Of a stretch of 21,260 nt of DNA, positions 3,823-18,104 are shown one piece after another; position 1 is the first letter of the stretch, and every line of letters starts with the position of its first letter. Under the pieces are notes generated by a model that was given only the letters and a program-made list of their open reading frames with translations, had not been told where the DNA came from and made no database searches. Made by a program: the position numbers and the translations under genes. Source of the DNA: a bacterium (GTDB lineage Bacteria; Armatimonadota; Chthonomonadetes; Chthonomonadales; CAJBBX01); NCBI GenBank assembly GCA_021811565.1, contig JAJZOL010000106.1, forward strand, positions 1-21,260, read 5' to 3'.

Positions 3823-4057
3823 TGATCTCACCCCCCTAAATAAGATTGGTTTTCATACGACGAAAAAGAGGTATTTCCTTCCCGATCTGATCGTTGAGGG
3901 ACAAAAATATCCCTTTGATCTCAATCAGGAGCCTGATCCGCCTTGCATCGCATCAGGATTTCATTGTACCCCTATTTACGCCGAAATGAATTTCCTCGTT
4001 CCCCTCGATCACGCCCAATTGAAATACGAACGAAGGCTCCAATGACAGGTAGAATCT

Positions 4058-5719
4058 ATGCCAGGTTCGAACTTCAAAGAGGCACTATTGAAAAAAATAC
4101 TACCCGATTACTGGCAACTTCTAATCGCAATTTTTATTTTCTTTGCGTTAATGGCTGGAATCGTCGTTTTTTCACTGAAAATCACGAACGGGCATTTCGT
4201 TTACACGCAGGATGACCCGTACATATCGATGGCGACTGCGAGAAACTGGGTGCGATACGGCGTGTGGGGGGTGGATCGTTATCGCTTCAGTTCCTCCACT
4301 TCATCATTGCTCTGGCCTCTGTTGTTGGCGATCTGTTATAAGCTCGTCGGAGTGCACGCCACCATTCCGTTGGCGTTGAATCTTTTGTTGGTGTGCGCAG
4401 TGTTTATCGTGGCGAATAGACTCTTAAAAAAACGCTCCCTTTCCTCCGCTTGGATAGCCGTCACGCTTTTCGCCATGATCCTCATGGTTCCCTTGCCCCT
4501 GCTTGTGACCTCGGGGCTTGAGCATGCACTCCATTCCCTCTCTATCCTGCTCCTCCTCTTCTACGGAACGGAAACGATATGCCGGAAGGGAAGGTTGAGT
4601 TCGCATGATACGCTCATGCTCGGATTGTTATCCATGTTTGCAGTCATGAGCAGATATGAGAGCGTCGCCCTCATCGCAGTCATTATTCTCGCTTTGGCAC
4701 TCCGAAAAAGATTGCTCGCCGGCCTTTTCACCGCCTTCGCCGCTTCGATTCCTATCATTGCATGGGGTTTGATCTCAATCCATTACGGAGCCTATTTCCT
4801 CCCAAATTCAATTCTGTTAAAAAGCAGAGTTCCCGCGGTCAGCGCGGTGAACCCGATGGGGATTTTCCTAACCACCAGCGTTGAAACCGTGATGGCACAT
4901 CCATTCCTACCTATATTATCTCTGTTCCCCCTCCTCTACCTTCTTTTTTCACGGATGCAAGGCGACATTGAACCATCCCTGCAAACATTGAATCTCCTCT
5001 TTTTCCTGATGGATTGGGCTCAAATTCTCTTTGGCAAATTAGATTCTTTTTACAGATATGACGGCTACGTGATCATATCCGGAGTGATGGTAATCGCCAT
5101 AGACATGGATCGAATTTTACGAGGTCAAGTTACAGGGTTCGGGTTTCGATGCAAACTCGGTGTCGCAGGCAATGCGATTATGATCCTCACGGGGATCGGC
5201 ATCGTCTCAATGGGGTTCCAAAGAGGCGTAAACGCCTTGGAGGCTCTTCCACGAGCGTCCGCGAACATCTACGAACAGCAATATCAAATGGGGCTTTTTG
5301 TTCGACAATTCTACACCGGAGAGACCGTGGCGGCGAACGACATTGGATGCATCAACTATTTGGCGGATATTCATTGCCTCGATATTTGGGGGTTAGCCAA
5401 TATGAACGCCGCAAAGCTTCGCATTCAAGGTGATGTGAACCCGCAAACGATCGGAGACCTTGTAAAAAGGAAGGGAGCCAGGATAGTGATGATCTATGAC
5501 ACATGGTTTCCGAACGCAATTCCAAGTCAATGGACTCGAGAAGGGCGCTGGGTTATCCCATTCAATATCGTGGACGGGGACAACACAGTCACATTCTACG
5601 CACCATCTCCTAATGACCGAGACAAACTCCTGCGCTCTCTCCGCGGATATTCCTCGCATTTGCCGGAAGAGGTTCTTCAATGCGGAGCGTATACTCTGGG
5701 ACAAACCCGAATTCGTTGA
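4058..5719 (+). CDS. polytopic membrane protein, probable GT-C-type (ArnT/PMT-like) glycosyltransferase with a C-terminal soluble domain
   Basis: 553 aa with about 12 hydrophobic segments. The first loop carries YTQDDPYISMATARNWVRYGVWGV, reminiscent of the DD/DE-x-Y motif of GT-C transferases (GT39/GT83). The roughly 150-aa C-terminal region is hydrophilic. The family call is tentative. Confidence 0.5.
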   Translation: MPGSNFKEALLKKILPDYWQLLIAIFIFFALMAGIVVFSLKITNGHFVYTQDDPYISMATARNWVRYGVWGVDRYRFSSSTSSLLWPLLLAICYKLVGVHATIPLALNLLLVCAVFIVANRLLKKRSLSSAWIAVTLFAMILMVPLPLLVTSGLEHALHSLSILLLLFYGTETICRKGRLSSHDTLMLGLLSMFAVMSRYESVALIAVIILALALRKRLLAGLFTAFAASIPIIAWGLISIHYGAYFLPNSILLKSRVPAVSAVNPMGIFLTTSVETVMAHPFLPILSLFPLLYLLFSRMQGDIEPSLQTLNLLFFLMDWAQILFGKLDSFYRYDGYVIISGVMVIAIDMDRILRGQVTGFGFRCKLGVAGNAIMILTGIGIVSMGFQRGVNALEALPRASANIYEQQYQMGLFVRQFYTGETVAANDIGCINYLADIHCLDIWGLANMNAAKLRIQGDVNPQTIGDLVKRKGARIVMIYDTWFPNAIPSQWTREGRWVIPFNIVDGDNTVTFYAPSPNDRDKLLRSLRGYSSHLPEEVLQCGAYTLGQTRIR

Positions 5720-12063: not shown

Positions 12064-12100
12064 GCAAACCGGGGGTGCAAGAGAGGTTTGCTGTTTTTTA
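12064..12100 (+). terminator. second hairpin plus T6 run 25 nt before the next start codon (backup terminator or attenuator)
   Basis: GCAAACC-15 nt loop-GGTTTGC followed by TGTTTTTTAC. The downstream gene's ATG is at 12126. Confidence 0.4.
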
Positions 12101-12125
12101 CGGGAGTCGCATTGGTAAGGAATAC

Positions 12126-12692
12126 ATGAATCAGGTGAACAACCCTCCCCATTGTCCGAAATGCAAGGAGGATGTTGAGGAAGGACGAGCGTTTTGCCCC
12201 TACTGCGGAGAGCCGTTAACCGTTTACGCGGACGCCTCCGATTTCAAGGGACCCAACGCCGCGAAAAAAGAGAAGGTCGCACGCTTGGATATCAAGCCTC
12301 CCGCCATCTACGAAATGATGGCGTTATTGATTTCCTGGACGCTCTTCTCCCCCGTCGGCTCCTTGGTGCATCTCTTCACGCATCGCACGGTGACCAACTC
12401 CAGTGGGACGAATTACTTGAATGCATCCTTCGGAGCGTTGCAGGTGATTTTTTATGCGGCCTTTCTAATCCCGGTATCACTGGCGATACTGTTTCTCGCT
12501 TACTCGGCATGGACGCAAAAAAGATGGGCTTGGAACGCATGCCTACTGTTTCTCACGGTTCCTCTGTTCTCATCCCTTTTAGGGTATTGGCCCGCTTCCG
12601 GATTCTGGAGACTAGCATGGATTCTCTTTATTCTACATGCAGGCTATTTCTGGCTCCTTGCACGCACTCGGGAGTGGTATGCGTGCGTGTAG
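12126..12692 (+). CDS. hypothetical membrane protein with an N-terminal zinc-ribbon (CPKC...CPYC) and 4 predicted TM helices
   Basis: Start chosen at the ATG 12126, 5 nt after TAAGGAAT. HCPKCKEDVEEGRAFCPYCGEP is a classic zinc-ribbon. The C-terminal 110 aa are strongly hydrophobic and Trp-rich. Confidence 0.55.
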   Translation: MNQVNNPPHCPKCKEDVEEGRAFCPYCGEPLTVYADASDFKGPNAAKKEKVARLDIKPPAIYEMMALLISWTLFSPVGSLVHLFTHRTVTNSSGTNYLNASFGALQVIFYAAFLIPVSLAILFLAYSAWTQKRWAWNACLLFLTVPLFSSLLGYWPASGFWRLAWILFILHAGYFWLLARTREWYACV

Positions 12693-12852
12693 GATTGAGA
12701 GCACCCCGTGTATTAGCAATAAAAAACAAGGAACATCATCCAACTTGATTTCATGGATTTAAAGGTATAAAATAGAAGCCAGACGCTTACCAATTGAATG
12801 AGGTGAGTTACCGACTCTTCTTTGCATTTCTCGTATTATCCTTGGCGCCCGA

Positions 12853-12875
12853 AGCGAACGCACTTCGCTTTTTTC
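12853..12875 (+). terminator. small intrinsic terminator-like hairpin, AGCGAA-CGCAC-TTCGCT plus TTTTT, in the 255-nt gap upstream of the ppx cluster
   Basis: 6-bp stem with a 5-nt loop followed by a T5-6 run. A promoter-like TTGATT-15 nt-TATAAA lies about 100 nt upstream (12745-12771). Confidence 0.35.
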
Positions 12876-12946
12876 TCGCTTCCCGTGGGATAGCGTACCG
12901 TTTCAAACATATTAAAGCGTCACCTTGACGTATGGGATGGATAACC

Positions 12947-13864
12947 ATGGAGAACAGATGCGCCGCAATTGATGTCGGTACGAACACCGTTAAACTCACC
13001 ATAGTTGAGAAGGAATCCCGCAACGCTTTCATTCCCTTGGTGGACACTGCGGTAACCACACGACTAGGAGAGGGCATTCATGCAAAGCGACTTAGAGAGA
13101 CCGCGATTCGCCGCACGATCAATTGCCTGCAGGATTATATCGCCTTGTGCCGCGCGCATCATGTGGAGCGCGTTGCCGCCGTGGGAACGTCCGCCCTCCG
13201 AGATGCGGTAAATCGAGATGAGTTTCTGGAAAGAGCGGCGGAACTCGGACTGAACGTGAAGGTCATTTCAGGGGAGGAGGAGGCGCGTCTCTCTTTTCTG
13301 GCGGTTTCGCGCGATCCGTTATGGCGTTCCGCGGATAGGGTCGTTGTCGTGGATATCGGTGGGGGCAGTTCGGAGCTTATCCTTGGCGAGCCGAGGCTGG
13401 GGGATATTCAAGAGCGTATCAGCTTTCAGATCGGGGCTGTGCGGTTGACGGAGACTTGCATTCGCTCCGACCCGCCAAGCATACGCGACATGGCGGAATC
13501 CAACGCCGCCGTCTCAGAAGCGATGAAGGGATTCTCCTTGCCAGACTCATCCATGATAGCCGTTGGAGTTGGAGGGACGTTCGTCAACATGGCTGCGGTA
13601 AAGGAGGGGATGGAGCAAAAAAATCCCGAACGGCTGCATGGTGTTCGATTGACATCATTGGACGTGGAGGCGCAAATCACCCTTTACGCCTCGAAAACCA
13701 TTGAGGAGCGGAAAAGAATCACCGGACTTGACCCGGCACGCGCGGATATCATTCTTGGAGGCGCGATCATCCTATCTCAAATTCTCAGCCATTGCGGACA
13801 GGATTCCATCCATTGCAGCACGCGGGGTTTGCGATGGGGGGTGTTGTACGATGCGTTCCGCTGA
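12947..13864 (+). CDS. Ppx/GppA-family protein, N-terminal actin-like ATPase domains only (split gene, part 1)
   Basis: AIDVGTNTVKL...VGTSALRDA...VVDIGGGSSEL...GLDPARADIILGGA match the Ppx/GppA phosphate-binding and adenosine motifs and align with the N-half of the intact paralogue at 14568-16124. The frame ends with TGATAA exactly where the inter-domain linker begins. Confidence 0.8.
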   Translation: MENRCAAIDVGTNTVKLTIVEKESRNAFIPLVDTAVTTRLGEGIHAKRLRETAIRRTINCLQDYIALCRAHHVERVAAVGTSALRDAVNRDEFLERAAELGLNVKVISGEEEARLSFLAVSRDPLWRSADRVVVVDIGGGSSELILGEPRLGDIQERISFQIGAVRLTETCIRSDPPSIRDMAESNAAVSEAMKGFSLPDSSMIAVGVGGTFVNMAAVKEGMEQKNPERLHGVRLTSLDVEAQITLYASKTIEERKRITGLDPARADIILGGAIILSQILSHCGQDSIHCSTRGLRWGVLYDAFR

Positions 13865-13944
13865 TAACCGACTGTATAATCGCCGCTCATCCCTATTAAG
13901 AGAGCATTTATCCGCCACTCAAAATTGTTATTGTGAGGGGAGTT

Positions 13945-14571
13945 ATGGATTCCAAATTGCAACTTGACGCCATATTGCAAATTGCCAGTCGTTACAATTA
14001 TGATTCGCTTCATTCACATCAGGTTGAATGCCTCGCAGGCACTATCTTTATGGAGTTGCTGGAATACCATCAACTGAGCAGGGATGATCGGAAGCTTTTG
14101 GAATATGCGGCCATATTGCACGACATCGGCTACTACGTCGCCAGAAAATCCCACCATCGCCATACGATGATGATGATCCTGACCGAACCGCTCATTCCGT
14201 TCGACAGAGAGGATGTCAAAGTGATAGCCAATGTCGCAAGGTATCACCGCAAGGCTCTTCCCACTCCCGAGCATACCGTTTTCGGCACACTGAACGAAGC
14301 GGACAGGCAAAAAGTTCGCATTCTTGCCGGGATACTGCGTGTTGCCGATGCGCTGGATCACGCCCACAAGAGCCTGGTGAAGGAATTGACATGCGAAGTG
14401 ACGGAGGACTCCGTCGTATTTCATATCGTTTCCGATCAAGATTTGCCAGAGGAGATAGCATCCCTGAACGCTCGCGGGGATCTATTCCGTGAGGTGTTTC
14501 GCAAAACTCCGAAGGTAAAGGTCGAGGTGCCAAGGCTTGCCTCACCTCAGGCGGTTTTTCAAACGTCATGA
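13945..14571 (+). CDS. HD-domain protein corresponding to the Ppx/GppA C-terminal domain (split gene, part 2)
   Basis: ILHDIGYYV (the HD motif) and YHRK align with AYLHDIGCFL and LYHRKG of the intact paralogue's C-half. It has its own SD, GTGAGGGGAG, 4 nt before the ATG. The stop TGA overlaps the ATG of the next gene (ATGA). Confidence 0.75.
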   Translation: MDSKLQLDAILQIASRYNYDSLHSHQVECLAGTIFMELLEYHQLSRDDRKLLEYAAILHDIGYYVARKSHHRHTMMMILTEPLIPFDREDVKVIANVARYHRKALPTPEHTVFGTLNEADRQKVRILAGILRVADALDHAHKSLVKELTCEVTEDSVVFHIVSDQDLPEEIASLNARGDLFREVFRKTPKVKVEVPRLASPQAVFQTS

Positions 14572-16124
14572 AAATACTCGCAGCCATTGATATCGGCACC
14601 AACGCCATCCGTTTGGAAGTGGTTCGAATTGAAGCGGATCATAGCCTGACCACGCTTTCCCAGCAAAAAGAGACCGTGCGACTCGGAGAGGGCGAATTCG
14701 CCACCAACCACATGTCCCCCGCTGCCATCGAAAGAGGCGCTCTCGTTTGCGCTCGTTTCGCGGATATGGCGCGAGGTTTCGGCGCCGAAGAGATCATCGC
14801 ATTGGCGACATCCGCCGTTCGCGAAGCGGAAAACAAGCTTGATTTTCTGGAAAGAGTGAATAAGGAGGCCGATCTGGACGTGAAGGTGATCTCCGGACCG
14901 GAGGAGGCACGCCTGATCTATCTCGGGGTGTCAAGCGGAGCCGCCATAGGAGACAAGCGTTGCATCTTCATAGATATAGGCGGCGGCAGTACCGAGTTGA
15001 TTCTTGGGGATGGAAACGATTACTTCCGCTTGGAGAGTTTGAAGCTAGGGTCCATCCGCCTATCAAACAAATTCCTTCAAGGAGAGAAGGGCGCCATCTC
15101 ACCGGACAAGATGCAGAAGTTGAGGGAATACGTCAGGGGCATTGTAAGTCACACAACGCGTAACCTCACCGATTTCGGATATGAAGCGGTATATGGCAGC
15201 GCCGGCACGATCACCAACCTTGCCGATATCACCGCAAGAAGGCTTGGCGACTCGCCTTCCTCCTTGTTGAACTACTCCGTAAAGGTCTCCGATTTGCAAT
15301 CCAGCGTGGATATGCTTGCCAAGCTAAATTTGGAGGATAGGCGCAAGGTGCCGGGATTGGATCCAGATCGAGCGGACATCATACTCGGGGGTGCGGTGAC
15401 ACTGATGACCATCTTGGAGAATTTAAAGGCTGAGAGGTTGATCATCAGCGACCGAGGGTTGAGGGATGGTATCATTGTGGACAGGCTTATGCAGGAGGCT
15501 CCCTCCAGTCCGCTCTTCGACAACACCTCCCTGCGGAAAAGAAGCATCCTGCAATTCGCCCGCTCATGTAATTATGATGCCGAGCATGCGAAACAGGTTG
15601 CCAGGATCGCCTGTCAGCTTTTTGACGAGATGAAGCGATTGGGGTTTCATCCCTACGGACCGAAGGAGAGGGAGTTGTTGGAATTCGCGGCATATCTGCA
15701 CGACATTGGATGCTTCCTCTCTCACACGAACCATCAAAAACACGCCTATTATCTTATTCGCAACGCCGACATATTAGGGTTCAACGATACGGAAATCGCT
15801 ATCATCGCGAATATCGCTCTTTACCATCGAAAAGGCGTTCCCAGGAAAAAACATGAGAATCTCGCTTCATTAACTCGACCGGTTCGGCACCTTATCAGCG
15901 TTCTTTCGGCGATCATTAGGATTGCGGAGGGGTTGGATCGAAGCCACTTGAATTTGGTTCAAGGGGTGAGGATGGAACCCGCTCATAATCCGGACAGGCT
16001 CATCCTCACGATTCTTTCCGAGGCGGATTGTCAATTGGAGATATGGTGGGTGGAGGAGAACAAGCATCTTTTCGAAACGGTATTCGACAACTCCTTATCC
16101 ATCTCCGTCCACAAACCGGAATAA
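14568..16124 (+). CDS. ppx: exopolyphosphatase / guanosine pentaphosphate phosphohydrolase (intact two-domain Ppx/GppA)
   Basis: 518 aa with AIDIGTNAIRL, DIGGGSTEL and GLDPDRADIILGGA (ATPase half), then an HD half with YLHDIGCFLSH and LYHRKG. Confidence 0.85.
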   Translation: MKILAAIDIGTNAIRLEVVRIEADHSLTTLSQQKETVRLGEGEFATNHMSPAAIERGALVCARFADMARGFGAEEIIALATSAVREAENKLDFLERVNKEADLDVKVISGPEEARLIYLGVSSGAAIGDKRCIFIDIGGGSTELILGDGNDYFRLESLKLGSIRLSNKFLQGEKGAISPDKMQKLREYVRGIVSHTTRNLTDFGYEAVYGSAGTITNLADITARRLGDSPSSLLNYSVKVSDLQSSVDMLAKLNLEDRRKVPGLDPDRADIILGGAVTLMTILENLKAERLIISDRGLRDGIIVDRLMQEAPSSPLFDNTSLRKRSILQFARSCNYDAEHAKQVARIACQLFDEMKRLGFHPYGPKERELLEFAAYLHDIGCFLSHTNHQKHAYYLIRNADILGFNDTEIAIIANIALYHRKGVPRKKHENLASLTRPVRHLISVLSAIIRIAEGLDRSHLNLVQGVRMEPAHNPDRLILTILSEADCQLEIWWVEENKHLFETVFDNSLSISVHKPE

Positions 16125-17040: not shown

Positions 17041-17147
17041 TCGCCAAGGGCGTTTTGCATTCCTTTGGCGGTTTTCTTTTACGGAGCAGGTCTCATTCCC
17101 GTATTAAATACGCATACAACGCAAATTTCATCACGAGGAAACCATCA

Positions 17148-18104
17148 ATGAGCAAACGCTCAGGGAAAACTGTCCGTCTGTTGGTCTCAGTGGCATTCGT
17201 CATCGTGGGTGGACTGATATCCGATCTTAACGTGGCGGCGTTCTGGAAACCTATCATACAGAACCTCGGTCTTTCCTTCATCGTTACCGGCGTGGTCAGC
17301 ATCTTTTACACGACATCCATTCTTCATTTGGAATCCGAAGAGGAGGGCGATGTCGTATCCGAAAAGGTGCTCGAGAAGCTTCAGAACCGACTGCCGATCA
17401 CCAACGGGATACGCATGGTCACTCACGCTCGAAAAGGGGCGGATGCATATTACTCGTGGATCACCGCTCCTGGCAATCCCGACCTGTTTTTCGCGGGGAG
17501 ATCTGTGCTGCATCGCATCGATTATGACATGAAACAGCGAGGGAAAGGATCCGCTGAAAAGGTTATCGCCGCGCGATTGAAAGCCGGGGCGACCATCAGA
17601 GTCCTGTTTTTGGACCCGCGCTCCTGCCTCATTGAACGCCTCGCCAAGGAATCCGGGCAGATGAAAGAGGCGATGCTCTCCGATATCGCCAACTCCCTAG
17701 GCATATGTCAGCGACTGTACGCTCAGTTTTTGAAAGGACATCGGTTCAGTTCACGCTCGCGACTGGAAATTCGGGTGTACGATGAGACGCCCTATTTCGC
17801 CTATCACAAACAGGATGACAAGGTGTTTGTTGGTTTTTATTTCATGAGCGGTCTCGGTCAGGACTCCGCGGCGTTCGAAACATTGGATTCCGAAACGCGC
17901 AAACTGTTCGGAGATCATTTCGCCACCATTTTCAGCTCCGCAAGCCGGCTCCTGGAACTCATCCCTCACAGAGCGGATCCTCTGATGGATTTACAGCTAA
18001 TGGAGGAGATGCGAACGGCGCTTGCTGAAACGCTGGGAGAAGAGCGCACAGCGCAAATCATGGGTGCATCCGGTGATAACTTACACAACAACCACACCGT
18101 ATAG
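17148..18104 (+). CDS. hypothetical membrane-anchored protein (2 TM helices plus a roughly 250-aa cytoplasmic domain of unrecognised family)
   Basis: ATG at 17148 preceded by GAGGAAA. Two hydrophobic helices ([17 protein letters not shown]; [20 protein letters not shown]) are followed by a soluble domain in which I cannot recognise any catalytic motif (no HKD, no GGDEF, no P-loop). It has its own promoter and a non-coding flank on each side. Confidence 0.5.

Follow-up and report, generated by a model that had tools for sequence, protein, structure and literature searches.

Introduction

Short exopolyphosphatases (PPXs) are textbook cases, and those of the Aquifex type are active by themselves. 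A fusion of ASKHA and HD/PDE units has been proposed as the origin of processive PPX, and the control exerted by the PPX C-terminus over chain-length preference, processivity and regulation has been studied through engineered truncations and linker mutants. Domains 3 and 4 of Escherichia coli PPX, which serve as a polyphosphate (polyP) probe under the names PPXdelta12 or PPBD, fold on their own and bind polyP of more than 35 residues (PMC13511156; PMC6537752). The PPX of Deinococcus radiodurans is much less active without its C-terminal domains, and its C-terminal domain shapes the polyP pocket (PMC11234463). Another polyP-binding module, CHAD, occurs in polyP operons (PMC6537752).

A single genome or operon can contain both short PPX genes (no HD) and long ones (with HD), with start codons that overlap stop codons (bioRxiv 10.1101/2023.12.22.573107). 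Paired-paralogue systems of this kind that resemble the locus described here include ppx1-ppk-ppx2 of the Lactobacillaceae and PPX1/PPX2 of Chlorobium tepidum, and Corynebacterium and Mycobacterium, with two short PPXs, are also listed among the organisms with paired PPXs. A separate gene for the HD module has not been reported for any of these pairs, whereas the present locus has one. A search of the literature on split PPX, and on PPX C-terminal or HD proteins that stand alone, returned nothing specific.

Layout of the three genes

The window, that is the whole stretch of 21,260 nucleotides that was analysed, contains three consecutive PPX-related genes on the forward strand. Gene A (12947-13864) encodes a short two-domain Ppx/GppA of 305 amino acids with ASKHA domains I and II only, gene B (13945-14571) a free-standing PPX C-terminal module of 208 amino acids with domains III and IV and an HD fold, and gene C (14568-16124) a canonical four-domain PPX/GppA of 518 amino acids. 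Coordinates and Pfam domains thus agree with the first-pass annotation, which had described an ASKHA-only gene and an HD-type gene ahead of a full-length copy. In the reading that we consider probable, the locus, from a Chthonomonadales (Armatimonadota) bacterium, is a polyP-degradation cluster of three intact genes in which A is a short PPX/GppA, C is a long PPX, and B is a free-standing tail that serves A in trans.

A terminator-like hairpin followed by a T-run, detected by a consensus scan alone, is located at 12850-12875 of the forward strand between an upstream zinc-ribbon membrane-protein gene and A, and suggests that A begins a new transcription unit. A second possible ATG for A is present at 12932; the gene calls in relatives favour 12947. 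The 3' end of A is a double stop, TGA TAA (13862-13867), and the 80-nt spacer between A and B (13865-13944) contains stops both in A's frame and in B's frame. As had been proposed from the window itself, B carries its own Shine-Dalgarno-like sequence, GAGGGGAG (13935-13942), 2 nt 5' of its ATG, and its TGA stop overlaps the ATG start of C as ATGA (14568-14571). The former is kept in the related loci L004 and L007, and the latter in L004, L007 and L013. Operon-like coupling of the genes is plausible. Among close relatives the A-B spacer varies from 71 to 82 nt, and its sequence drifts too. A programmed frameshift or read-through from A into B was rejected on the double stop, the stops in both frames and the variable spacer. 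A structured RNA or a terminator in the spacer was likewise rejected, as a terminator scan of 13865-13944 found no terminator-like hairpin and the predicted RNA fold of the spacer was no better than that of shuffled sequences (z +1.6).

Gene A encodes a short PPX/GppA of the Aquifex class

The product of gene A matched PF02541 (Ppx-GppA) alone among Pfam models, with an E-value of 4e-60 over residues 20-303. Bit scores for this model were 204 for A and 230 for C against a cut-off of 27, which places both in the Ppx/GppA family. The catalytic motifs of A are complete (D9-x-G-x-N, G109-E-E-E-A-R and D136-I-G-G-G-S-x-E143); the DxGxN, EEAR and DxGGGSxE signatures align with those of Aquifex PPX/GppA and are invariant throughout the A family. 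The top match in the PDB was Aquifex aeolicus PPX/GppA (2j4r, E 2e-40, residues 4-301), and this protein was the sister of A in 45 of 60 bootstraps of a simple neighbour-joining (NJ) tree with a single short outgroup. Every one of the best 120 relatives of A is 260-366 amino acids long and contains PF02541 alone. By length, domain content and relatedness, A is a short two-domain PPX/GppA of the Aquifex class. It is like the Aquifex enzyme (1T6C, 1T6D, 2J4R) in length (305 versus about 310 amino acids), in its two ASKHA domains and in its catalytic motifs, and other short two-domain PPXs (PDB 3CER, 3MDQ and 7EPQ) can be likened to it. The difference from Aquifex, stated of A's side only, is that a gene for the "missing" C-terminal module always lies 3' of A.

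Scores for the NCBIfam model TIGR03706 ("exo_poly_only") were 232.5 bits for A and 285.9 for C, under the curated cut-off of 307, so the family is clear and a specific activity, on polyP or pppGpp, is not assignable by that rule. All three proteins also scored below the GppA equivalog NF008260 (A 92, B 39 and C 203 bits; cut-off 624) and the E. coli-type PPX equivalog NF008108 (A 88, B 36 and C 198 bits; cut-off 864).

Gene C and its relation to A and B

Gene C is an ordinary member of the long four-domain PPX/GppA group (E. coli 1U6Z/2FLO, D. radiodurans 8JGO, Helicobacter pylori 6PC0). Its product matched PF02541 (3.7e-68), PF21447 (6.6e-33) and PF01966, and its top PDB match was D. radiodurans PPX (8jgo, E 2.8e-64). 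Both A and B align to it, as the first-pass annotation had noted: A is 36% identical to residues 5-305 (E 8e-47) and B is 33% identical to residues 319-517 (E 3e-35), with about 13 linker residues of C unmatched in either. With A reaching to residue 305 of C and B starting from 319, the break falls at the inter-domain linker, and the TGATAA stop noted there is borne out. Together A and B give the same domain order as a long PPX (I-II followed by III-IV); they differ from it in being separate polypeptides without the alpha-helical linker.

The further proposal, of A and B as a copy of neighbouring C that has been split, was not upheld, given the low identity of 33-36% and a layout that, as judged from its relatives, is ancient. 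A recent duplication and fission of C was rejected on the same identities and on the persistence of the A-B-C order in relatives at 49-58% identity.

Gene B encodes a free-standing PPX tail module

The product of gene B matched PF21447 (Ppx-GppA_III; E 1.2e-23, 84 bits against a gathering cut-off of 27.3) and, end to end, PF01966 (HD; E 8e-10, 39.5 bits against a cut-off of 22). It also matched the C-terminal domain of D. radiodurans PPX (8jgo) with an E-value of 5.5e-26. Both halves of the presumed split therefore belong to the Ppx/GppA family, and the alternative that they come from unrelated families did not materialize. The AlphaFold2 model of B has a pLDDT of 94.5 and a pTM of 0.90. In Foldseek comparisons this model superposed on domains III-IV of solved PPX/GppA structures (1u6z, 2flo, 8jgx, 8jgo and 6pc0) with TM scores of 0.66-0.75, and on the isolated Yersinia pestis C-terminal fragment 3rf0 with a TM score of 0.77; 186-199 columns were aligned in these six comparisons. 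Sequence and fold together identify B as a PPX C-terminal module. B is best seen, by analogy, as the natural counterpart of the engineered PPBD fragment of E. coli, being the same module at about the same size. PPBD was made by truncation in the laboratory, while B occurs naturally, as a gene that has many homologues and is kept by purifying selection; polyP binding by B is putative.

The H...HD...D signature is present in B. Its tetrad H23, H59-D60 and D138 shows no variation in 59 diverse sequences and almost none in fused relatives, and H70, R99-Y-H-R102 and D135 are also invariant. The HD dipeptide is kept in both B and C; D. radiodurans PPX has HE at this position, as does E. coli PPX. 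B could on these grounds be an active metal-dependent phosphohydrolase of the HD superfamily with a substrate of its own, either short polyP or a nucleotide alarmone, (p)ppGpp for instance, and the operon would then unite phosphohydrolases of different chemistry. The invariant residues, the end-to-end PF01966 match, the contrast with HE and low-scoring structural matches with HD-GYP and YpgQ enzymes are in keeping with such a role. However, those structural matches (TM 0.38-0.44, ranks 28-38) are far below those to PPX tails, the literature examined reports no HD activity for PPX C-terminal domains, and the conserved His and Arg residues of B could equally be polyP ligands. We regard a separate HD enzyme as improbable.

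The A-B unit is conserved among relatives

Loci of relatives (labelled L001 and so on) were compared, and A-B adjacency was judged where the region upstream of B was readable. An A-like gene was found immediately upstream of B in every readable locus of the B family, down to about 49% identity (L001, L002/3, L004-7, L008, L009, L010, L012 and L018). In L011 the A homologue upstream of B is present in three broken ORFs, and in L013 only its 3' end is seen, at a contig edge. Among deeper relatives A and B overlap by 4 nt in L001, L002 and L011 and are 7 nt apart in L010. The adjacency persists without C in L001, L009, L010 and L012. The full A-B-C order is maintained in L002 and L013, with orthologues of C (57-58% identity) following B. 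A scan of a genome collection with B alone returned two close loci, both in Chthonomonadales metagenome-assembled genomes (MAGs).

Strong purifying selection acts on each of the three genes, with dN/dS values against two relatives of 0.04-0.06 for A, 0.07-0.13 for B and 0.03-0.08 for C (0.03-0.13 overall). The A-B-C order is a conserved arrangement of three intact genes in Chthonomonadales. Since A and B are in different frames, are separated by 80 nt and jointly cover the long architecture, they might be taken for the remains of one long PPX that a frameshift or nonsense mutation has recently interrupted, or that an error of sequencing or assembly makes look interrupted. The selection on both halves (dN/dS 0.04-0.13) argues against this, as do the double stop, the spacer stops in both frames, the varying spacer length and the retention of B's own Shine-Dalgarno sequence. 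The same split is present in independent assemblies, with at least 120 clusters per half, and a fused form or single uninterrupted ORF was absent among the best 120 clusters for each half (about 240 in total). Locus L034, by contrast, contains a genuine frameshifted long PPX. A pseudogene or artefact is effectively refuted.

The idea of a stable domain fission, put forward in place of a fresh frameshift, holds as far as stability is concerned, on dN/dS and on relatives to about 49% identity. An origin by local fission is not favoured, because A is closest to the two-domain Aquifex PPX/GppA, because in 69 of 100 bootstraps the sister group of B had free-standing HD proteins as its sole members, and because free-standing HD genes outside the B family have CHAD, long PPX and PPK1 genes as neighbours instead of an upstream N-half.

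A possible in-trans exopolyphosphatase

The preferred reading, with B serving A in trans, would work as follows. A would be an ASKHA-type exopolyphosphatase/GppA of the Aquifex class with its catalytic apparatus complete, and B the module to which long PPXs owe the binding of long-chain polyP and a gain in activity and processivity. With A and B forming a fixed two-gene unit, adjacent throughout and overlapping by 4 nt in most relatives, B would dock on A without a covalent bond, and perhaps on C or polyP granules as well. Docked B would provide in trans what long PPXs have in cis, the polyP-binding or clamp function, and the two PPX forms of the cell would then differ in chain-length preference or regulation. 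A two-subunit exopolyphosphatase of this kind has indirect support from the obligate adjacency of A and B and from their 4-nt overlaps. Counted against it are the ATGA in the window, which couples translation of B to C and not to A 80 nt away, and the 249 nt that separate A and B in L012. Further points against it are the B-like proteins of other families that stand alone with no short PPX beside them, the TIGR03706 scores of A and C below the cut-off, and the lack of CHAD and PPK genes in the window. A might also manage without B, as short PPXs of the Aquifex type are active alone.

The catalytic core and the tail are here naturally separate and co-encoded beside a fused paralogue, so that direct in-trans reconstitution experiments become possible.

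A wider family of free-standing tails

B falls in with a large family of proteins that stand alone, are about 200 amino acids long and come from at least three phyla. The metagenome scan for this family was made with a five-sequence alignment. As the genome scan returned only the two close loci, taxonomic breadth is judged from a small number of source names (Chthonomonadales/Chthonomonadaceae, Phycisphaerae, Ca. Handelsmanbacteria and one "Chloroherpetonaceae" MAG). Free-standing PPX tails are a large uncharacterised protein family, and the earlier description of split Ppx/GppA as unusual was overstated, since short PPXs are well known and free-standing C-terminal modules are abundant in metagenomes.

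Outside the B family, an N-half gene was found upstream of a free-standing HD gene in 0 of 19 loci, which indicates that the generic role of the module is not that of the second half of a split enzyme. A CHAD gene was immediately upstream in 14 of the 19. The order CHAD-HD-longPPX-PPK1 was seen in L014, L015, L019, L051, L057, L075 and L079, and CHAD-HD without a nearby PPX in L016, L017, L063 and L093. HD-CHAD fusion proteins also exist (P0467), and a CHAD gene precedes the A-B pair in the B-family loci L001, L002, L010 and L011. Neither a CHAD nor a PPK gene was found in the 21-kb window, which thus does not qualify as a CHAD-linked polyP locus. CHAD proteins ("phosins") are, like B-type proteins, small, His-rich, helical and encoded in polyP loci; their folds differ, CHAD being a helical bundle and B an HD fold with an alpha/beta domain IV.

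These neighbourhoods bear on another account of the window, in which A functions by itself as a short PPX/GppA, as the Aquifex enzyme does, and B is a separate polyP-binding protein comparable to a phosin or a natural PPBD. The partners of B would be CHAD proteins, polyP granules or C, and B might, for instance, control how accessible polyP is. The CHAD associations and fusions, the absence of short PPX neighbours at all 19 loci outside the B family, the B-C overlap in the window and the recurrence among lineages of an HD gene followed by a long PPX would all fit, as would the polyP binding of the isolated E. coli C-terminal domain (PMC13511156). The adjacency of A and B throughout the B family, even where C is missing, and their frequent 4-nt overlap, typical of co-assembling partners, speak against it, and we consider an independent B rather unlikely.

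With the in-trans reading of the A-B pair as its special case, a broader proposition can be offered tentatively: free-standing PPX tails may be a widespread polyP-associated class, natural "PPBD" partners of CHAD and PPX, of which one in Chthonomonadales would serve a short PPX as a detachable subunit for polyP binding or processivity. If so, the A-B pair would be an unfused counterpart, relic or reversal, of the ASKHA and HD/PDE fusion, and the tail module might in addition have kept HD catalysis. The tight link of the family to CHAD, PPX and PPK1 genes suggests that the biology of bacterial polyP granules has an unstudied component, and the family is a possible source of natural polyP-binding probes. 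Tails of about 200 amino acids are automatically labelled "exopolyphosphatase/GppA" although they contain no catalytic domains, and such annotations should be read with caution.

Three adjacent Ppx/GppA genes

The source of the window, a Chthonomonadales (Armatimonadota) bacterium, carries three consecutive Ppx/GppA genes on the forward strand, as the first-pass annotation had described. Gene A (12947-13864) encodes 305 amino acids matching only the Ppx-GppA ASKHA region in Pfam (E 4e-60), gene B (13945-14571) encodes 208 amino acids matching Ppx-GppA_III (E 1.2e-23) and HD (E 8e-10), and gene C (14568-16124) encodes a protein of 518 amino acids containing all three domains. Alignment of the three proteins placed A on residues 5-305 of C (36% identity) and B on residues 319-517 (33% identity), so the break between A and B coincides with the inter-domain linker, as had been proposed. 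The window sequence also confirmed that A terminates in a double stop (TGATAA), that a spacer of 80 nt with stop codons in the frames of both A and B follows, that B has its own Shine-Dalgarno sequence (GAGGGGAG, 2 nt 5' of the B ATG), and that B and C overlap by ATGA. A scan for terminator-like sites found none in the A-B spacer and a terminator-like hairpin upstream of A.

Just 5' of A lies a zinc-ribbon protein gene (12075-12692, forward strand), whose 205-residue product has DUF7575/zinc-ribbon matches and hydrophobic segments; its counterpart in one relative's locus (L009, 3742-3978) encodes a Zn_ribbon_8 protein of 78 amino acids. Two other forward-strand ORFs were observed in the window, one of 553 amino acids (4058-5719) lacking any Pfam hit at E <= 0.001 and one of 349 amino acids (17055-18104) whose sole Pfam match is a weak DUF5919 (24.4 bits). 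At the position equivalent to the latter, relatives have a called gene of 318 amino acids with no Pfam hit.

Conservation of the A-B pair

The split was proposed to be stable rather than a fresh frameshift, and this was borne out. The same three genes are present with 96-98% amino-acid identity in L007 (MAG contig DAIDHP010000022). Against L004 and L007, A gave Nei-Gojobori dN/dS values of 0.04-0.06, B values of 0.07-0.13 and C values of 0.03-0.08. Across the window, L004 and L007 the A-B spacer varies in sequence and length (71, 80 and 82 nt), and the Shine-Dalgarno sequence of B is kept. Clustered at 90% identity, the protein relatives of B filled at least 120 clusters (171-271 amino acids, down to ~49% identity) and those of A at least 120 clusters (260-366 amino acids, down to ~46% identity); no fused or uninterrupted A-B form was found among them. 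Low dN/dS, the same split in L007 and the lack of fused relatives among these clusters together effectively rule out an artefact or pseudogene.

A short Ppx gene lies directly 5' of the HD gene in every B-family locus with a readable upstream region (L001, L002/L003, L004-7, L008, L009, L010, L012 and L018); in L013 the A homologue is visible by its 3' end only, at a contig edge. A 4-nt overlap joins A and B in L001, L002 and L011, and a gap of 7 nt separates them in L010. The A homologue of L011 (3966-5004), on a 615-kb contig named contig_18, is broken into three called ORFs (104, 171 and 83 amino acids) upstream of an intact B; indel errors in long-read assembly probably account for this, a real pseudogene being the alternative. 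In L012 a 249-nt gap between A and B (4751-5001) contains a called 31-residue ORF, whereas in sister loci the two genes overlap by 4 nt. The long paralogue is present 3' of B in the window, L004-7, L002/3, L013 and L018 and absent in L001, L009, L010, L011 and L012. Because A is kept next to B with or without C, the A-B pair is the conserved core. Judged by sequence divergence, the A-B-C order as a whole is also old, since genes A, B and C of L002 are only 53%, 58% and 58% identical to those of the window.

CHAD, a polyP-binding protein gene, is found with TrkA-domain genes upstream of A-B in the deeper B-family loci as well. Two TrkA-domain genes (TrkA_N; TrkA_N+TrkA_C) are conserved 5' of CHAD/A/B in L001, L002, L010, L011 and L012, usually with a small HHH_5 protein in these deeper Chthonomonadales-like loci, a positional link of K+-transport regulatory domains to polyP genes. 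The MAG carrying L002 (GCA_033579235.1) is labelled Chloroherpetonaceae and yet has this typical Chthonomonadales-type TrkA-CHAD-A-B-C cluster, which suggests mis-binning or horizontal transfer.

Free-standing PPX tails outside the B family

When 1.84 billion cluster representatives were searched exhaustively, the B family fell into one 50% cluster. Lower in the ranking, long PPXs (~500-540 amino acids) were interspersed with many proteins of ~190-235 amino acids that begin at the start position of B, sit inside long contigs and carry the same invariant His and Asp residues. A profile of these free-standing tails matched 2917 clusters at E <= 1e-20, the best 120 of which are nearly all 187-245 amino acids long; the few taxon labels name Phycisphaerae, Ca. 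Handelsmanbacteria and Chthonomonadales. This family-level observation is of greater interest than the single locus. Short PPXs, long PPXs and their coexistence are already known (bioRxiv 10.1101/2023.12.22.573107), and literature searches found no paper on free-standing PPX tails or a two-gene PPX. The tails carry automatic labels only ('HD domain-containing protein', 'Ppx/GppA phosphatase C-terminal domain-containing protein', 'exopolyphosphatase/GppA'), the last of which is misleading.

The gene contexts of the wider family differ from that of the window, and this changes the interpretation of A-B. Gene order is CHAD-HD-long PPX-PPK1 in L014 (HD gene 4001-4594) and L015 (4001-4657), PhoU ... 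CHAD-HD in L016 (4001-4696) and CHAD-metallophosphatase-HD in L017 (4001-4594). Purpose-built HMMs applied to 80 metagenome loci yielded 15 further free-standing HD genes preceded by 1 kb or more of sequence. A short Ppx gene was upstream of none of the 15; CHAD was upstream of 10, a long PPX directly 3' of five and PPK1 near eight. The only one of the 80 loci with a short PPX, HD and long PPX in order, L018, is a B-family member by sequence. Counting L014-17, an N-half gene was upstream of 0 and CHAD upstream of 14 of the 19 free-standing HD genes outside the B family.

Loci with the HD gene directly 3' of CHAD also include L019, L038, L051, L057, L063, L075, L077, L079 and L093, and CHAD-linked HD genes are often trailed by a long PPX and PPK1; the literature searched held no description of this recurrent CHAD-HD-PPX-PPK1 polyP module. 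The HD module is also found fused to a CHAD domain (P0467, 364 amino acids) and to Metallophos_2 (P0452 and P0496, ~345 amino acids); compare the separate metallophosphatase gene of L017. Tandem long PPX pairs lie directly 5' of PPK1 in L022, L033, L035 and L044, with CHAD on the opposite strand in the first three. Against the N-domain HMM the second copy gives just a partial match, and in L034 it is split over two frames, as expected of a genuine frameshift or sequencing error.

Relatives of A and B and the origin of the pair

The catalytic motifs of A are intact. Among solved structures A comes closest to Aquifex aeolicus PPX/GppA, an enzyme that naturally has two domains (2j4r; E 2e-40, 142 bits); the D. 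radiodurans PPX N-terminal domain scored only 60 bits. The N-terminal part of C scored about equally against both enzymes (109 and 109 bits). None of the three genes reached an NCBIfam equivalog cut-off that would assign a preference for polyP or pppGpp. B in turn finds its best solved match in D. radiodurans PPX, over the C-terminal half (8jgo, E 5.5e-26). The AF2 model of B (pLDDT 94.5, pTM 0.90) superposes on domains III-IV of every long PPX/GppA of solved structure (TM 0.66-0.75) and on 3rf0, a C-terminal fragment from Yersinia solved in isolation (TM 0.77).

Trees of both modules were neighbour-joining, on 200-300 columns, and the long PPXs sampled had been gathered by their similarity to B. 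With a single short-PPX outgroup, the A family was monophyletic in 60/60 bootstraps of the N-domain tree, and the Aquifex enzyme alone was its sister in 45/60. In the HD-module tree the B family was monophyletic in 98/100 bootstraps and its sister group was entirely free-standing in 69/100 and mostly free-standing in 93/100.

The pair had been described as a domain-split copy. A and B do match the two halves of the long architecture, but both lineages occur elsewhere as independent proteins, and an origin by duplication of a long gene and its fission in place is therefore not favoured. Two other origins fit the data equally in these simple trees. A short PPX may have been recruited beside a pre-existing CHAD-HD-long-PPX module, or the A-B pair may be a very old unfused state, which recalls the fusion origin reportedly proposed, by title, for processive PPX by Alvarado et al. 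in 2006, a paper cited in PMC6537752.

Possible role of B

Catalysis by PPX has been assigned to the N-terminal half. Removal of the C-terminal domains costs D. radiodurans PPX most of its efficiency, and the polyP pocket of this enzyme is tuned by the C-terminal domain and linker length (PMC11234463). E. coli domains 3+4 alone, the engineered PPBD, bind polyP of >35 residues (PMC13511156; PMC6537752), and CHAD is a polyP binder found in polyP operons (PMC6537752). B resembles PPBD and may be a natural PPBD-like polyP-binding module. The obligate A-B adjacency and frequent 4-nt overlap suggest that B would act in trans as a polyP-binding or processivity subunit of A. B may instead work with C or polyP granules, a reading compatible with its coupling to C through ATGA and with the CHAD-HD-PPX order of other lineages. 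B could also be an independent HD hydrolase with putative activity, its metal-ligand signature being intact: the HD ligand set (H23, H59-D60 and D138) is invariant, as are several other His and Arg residues.
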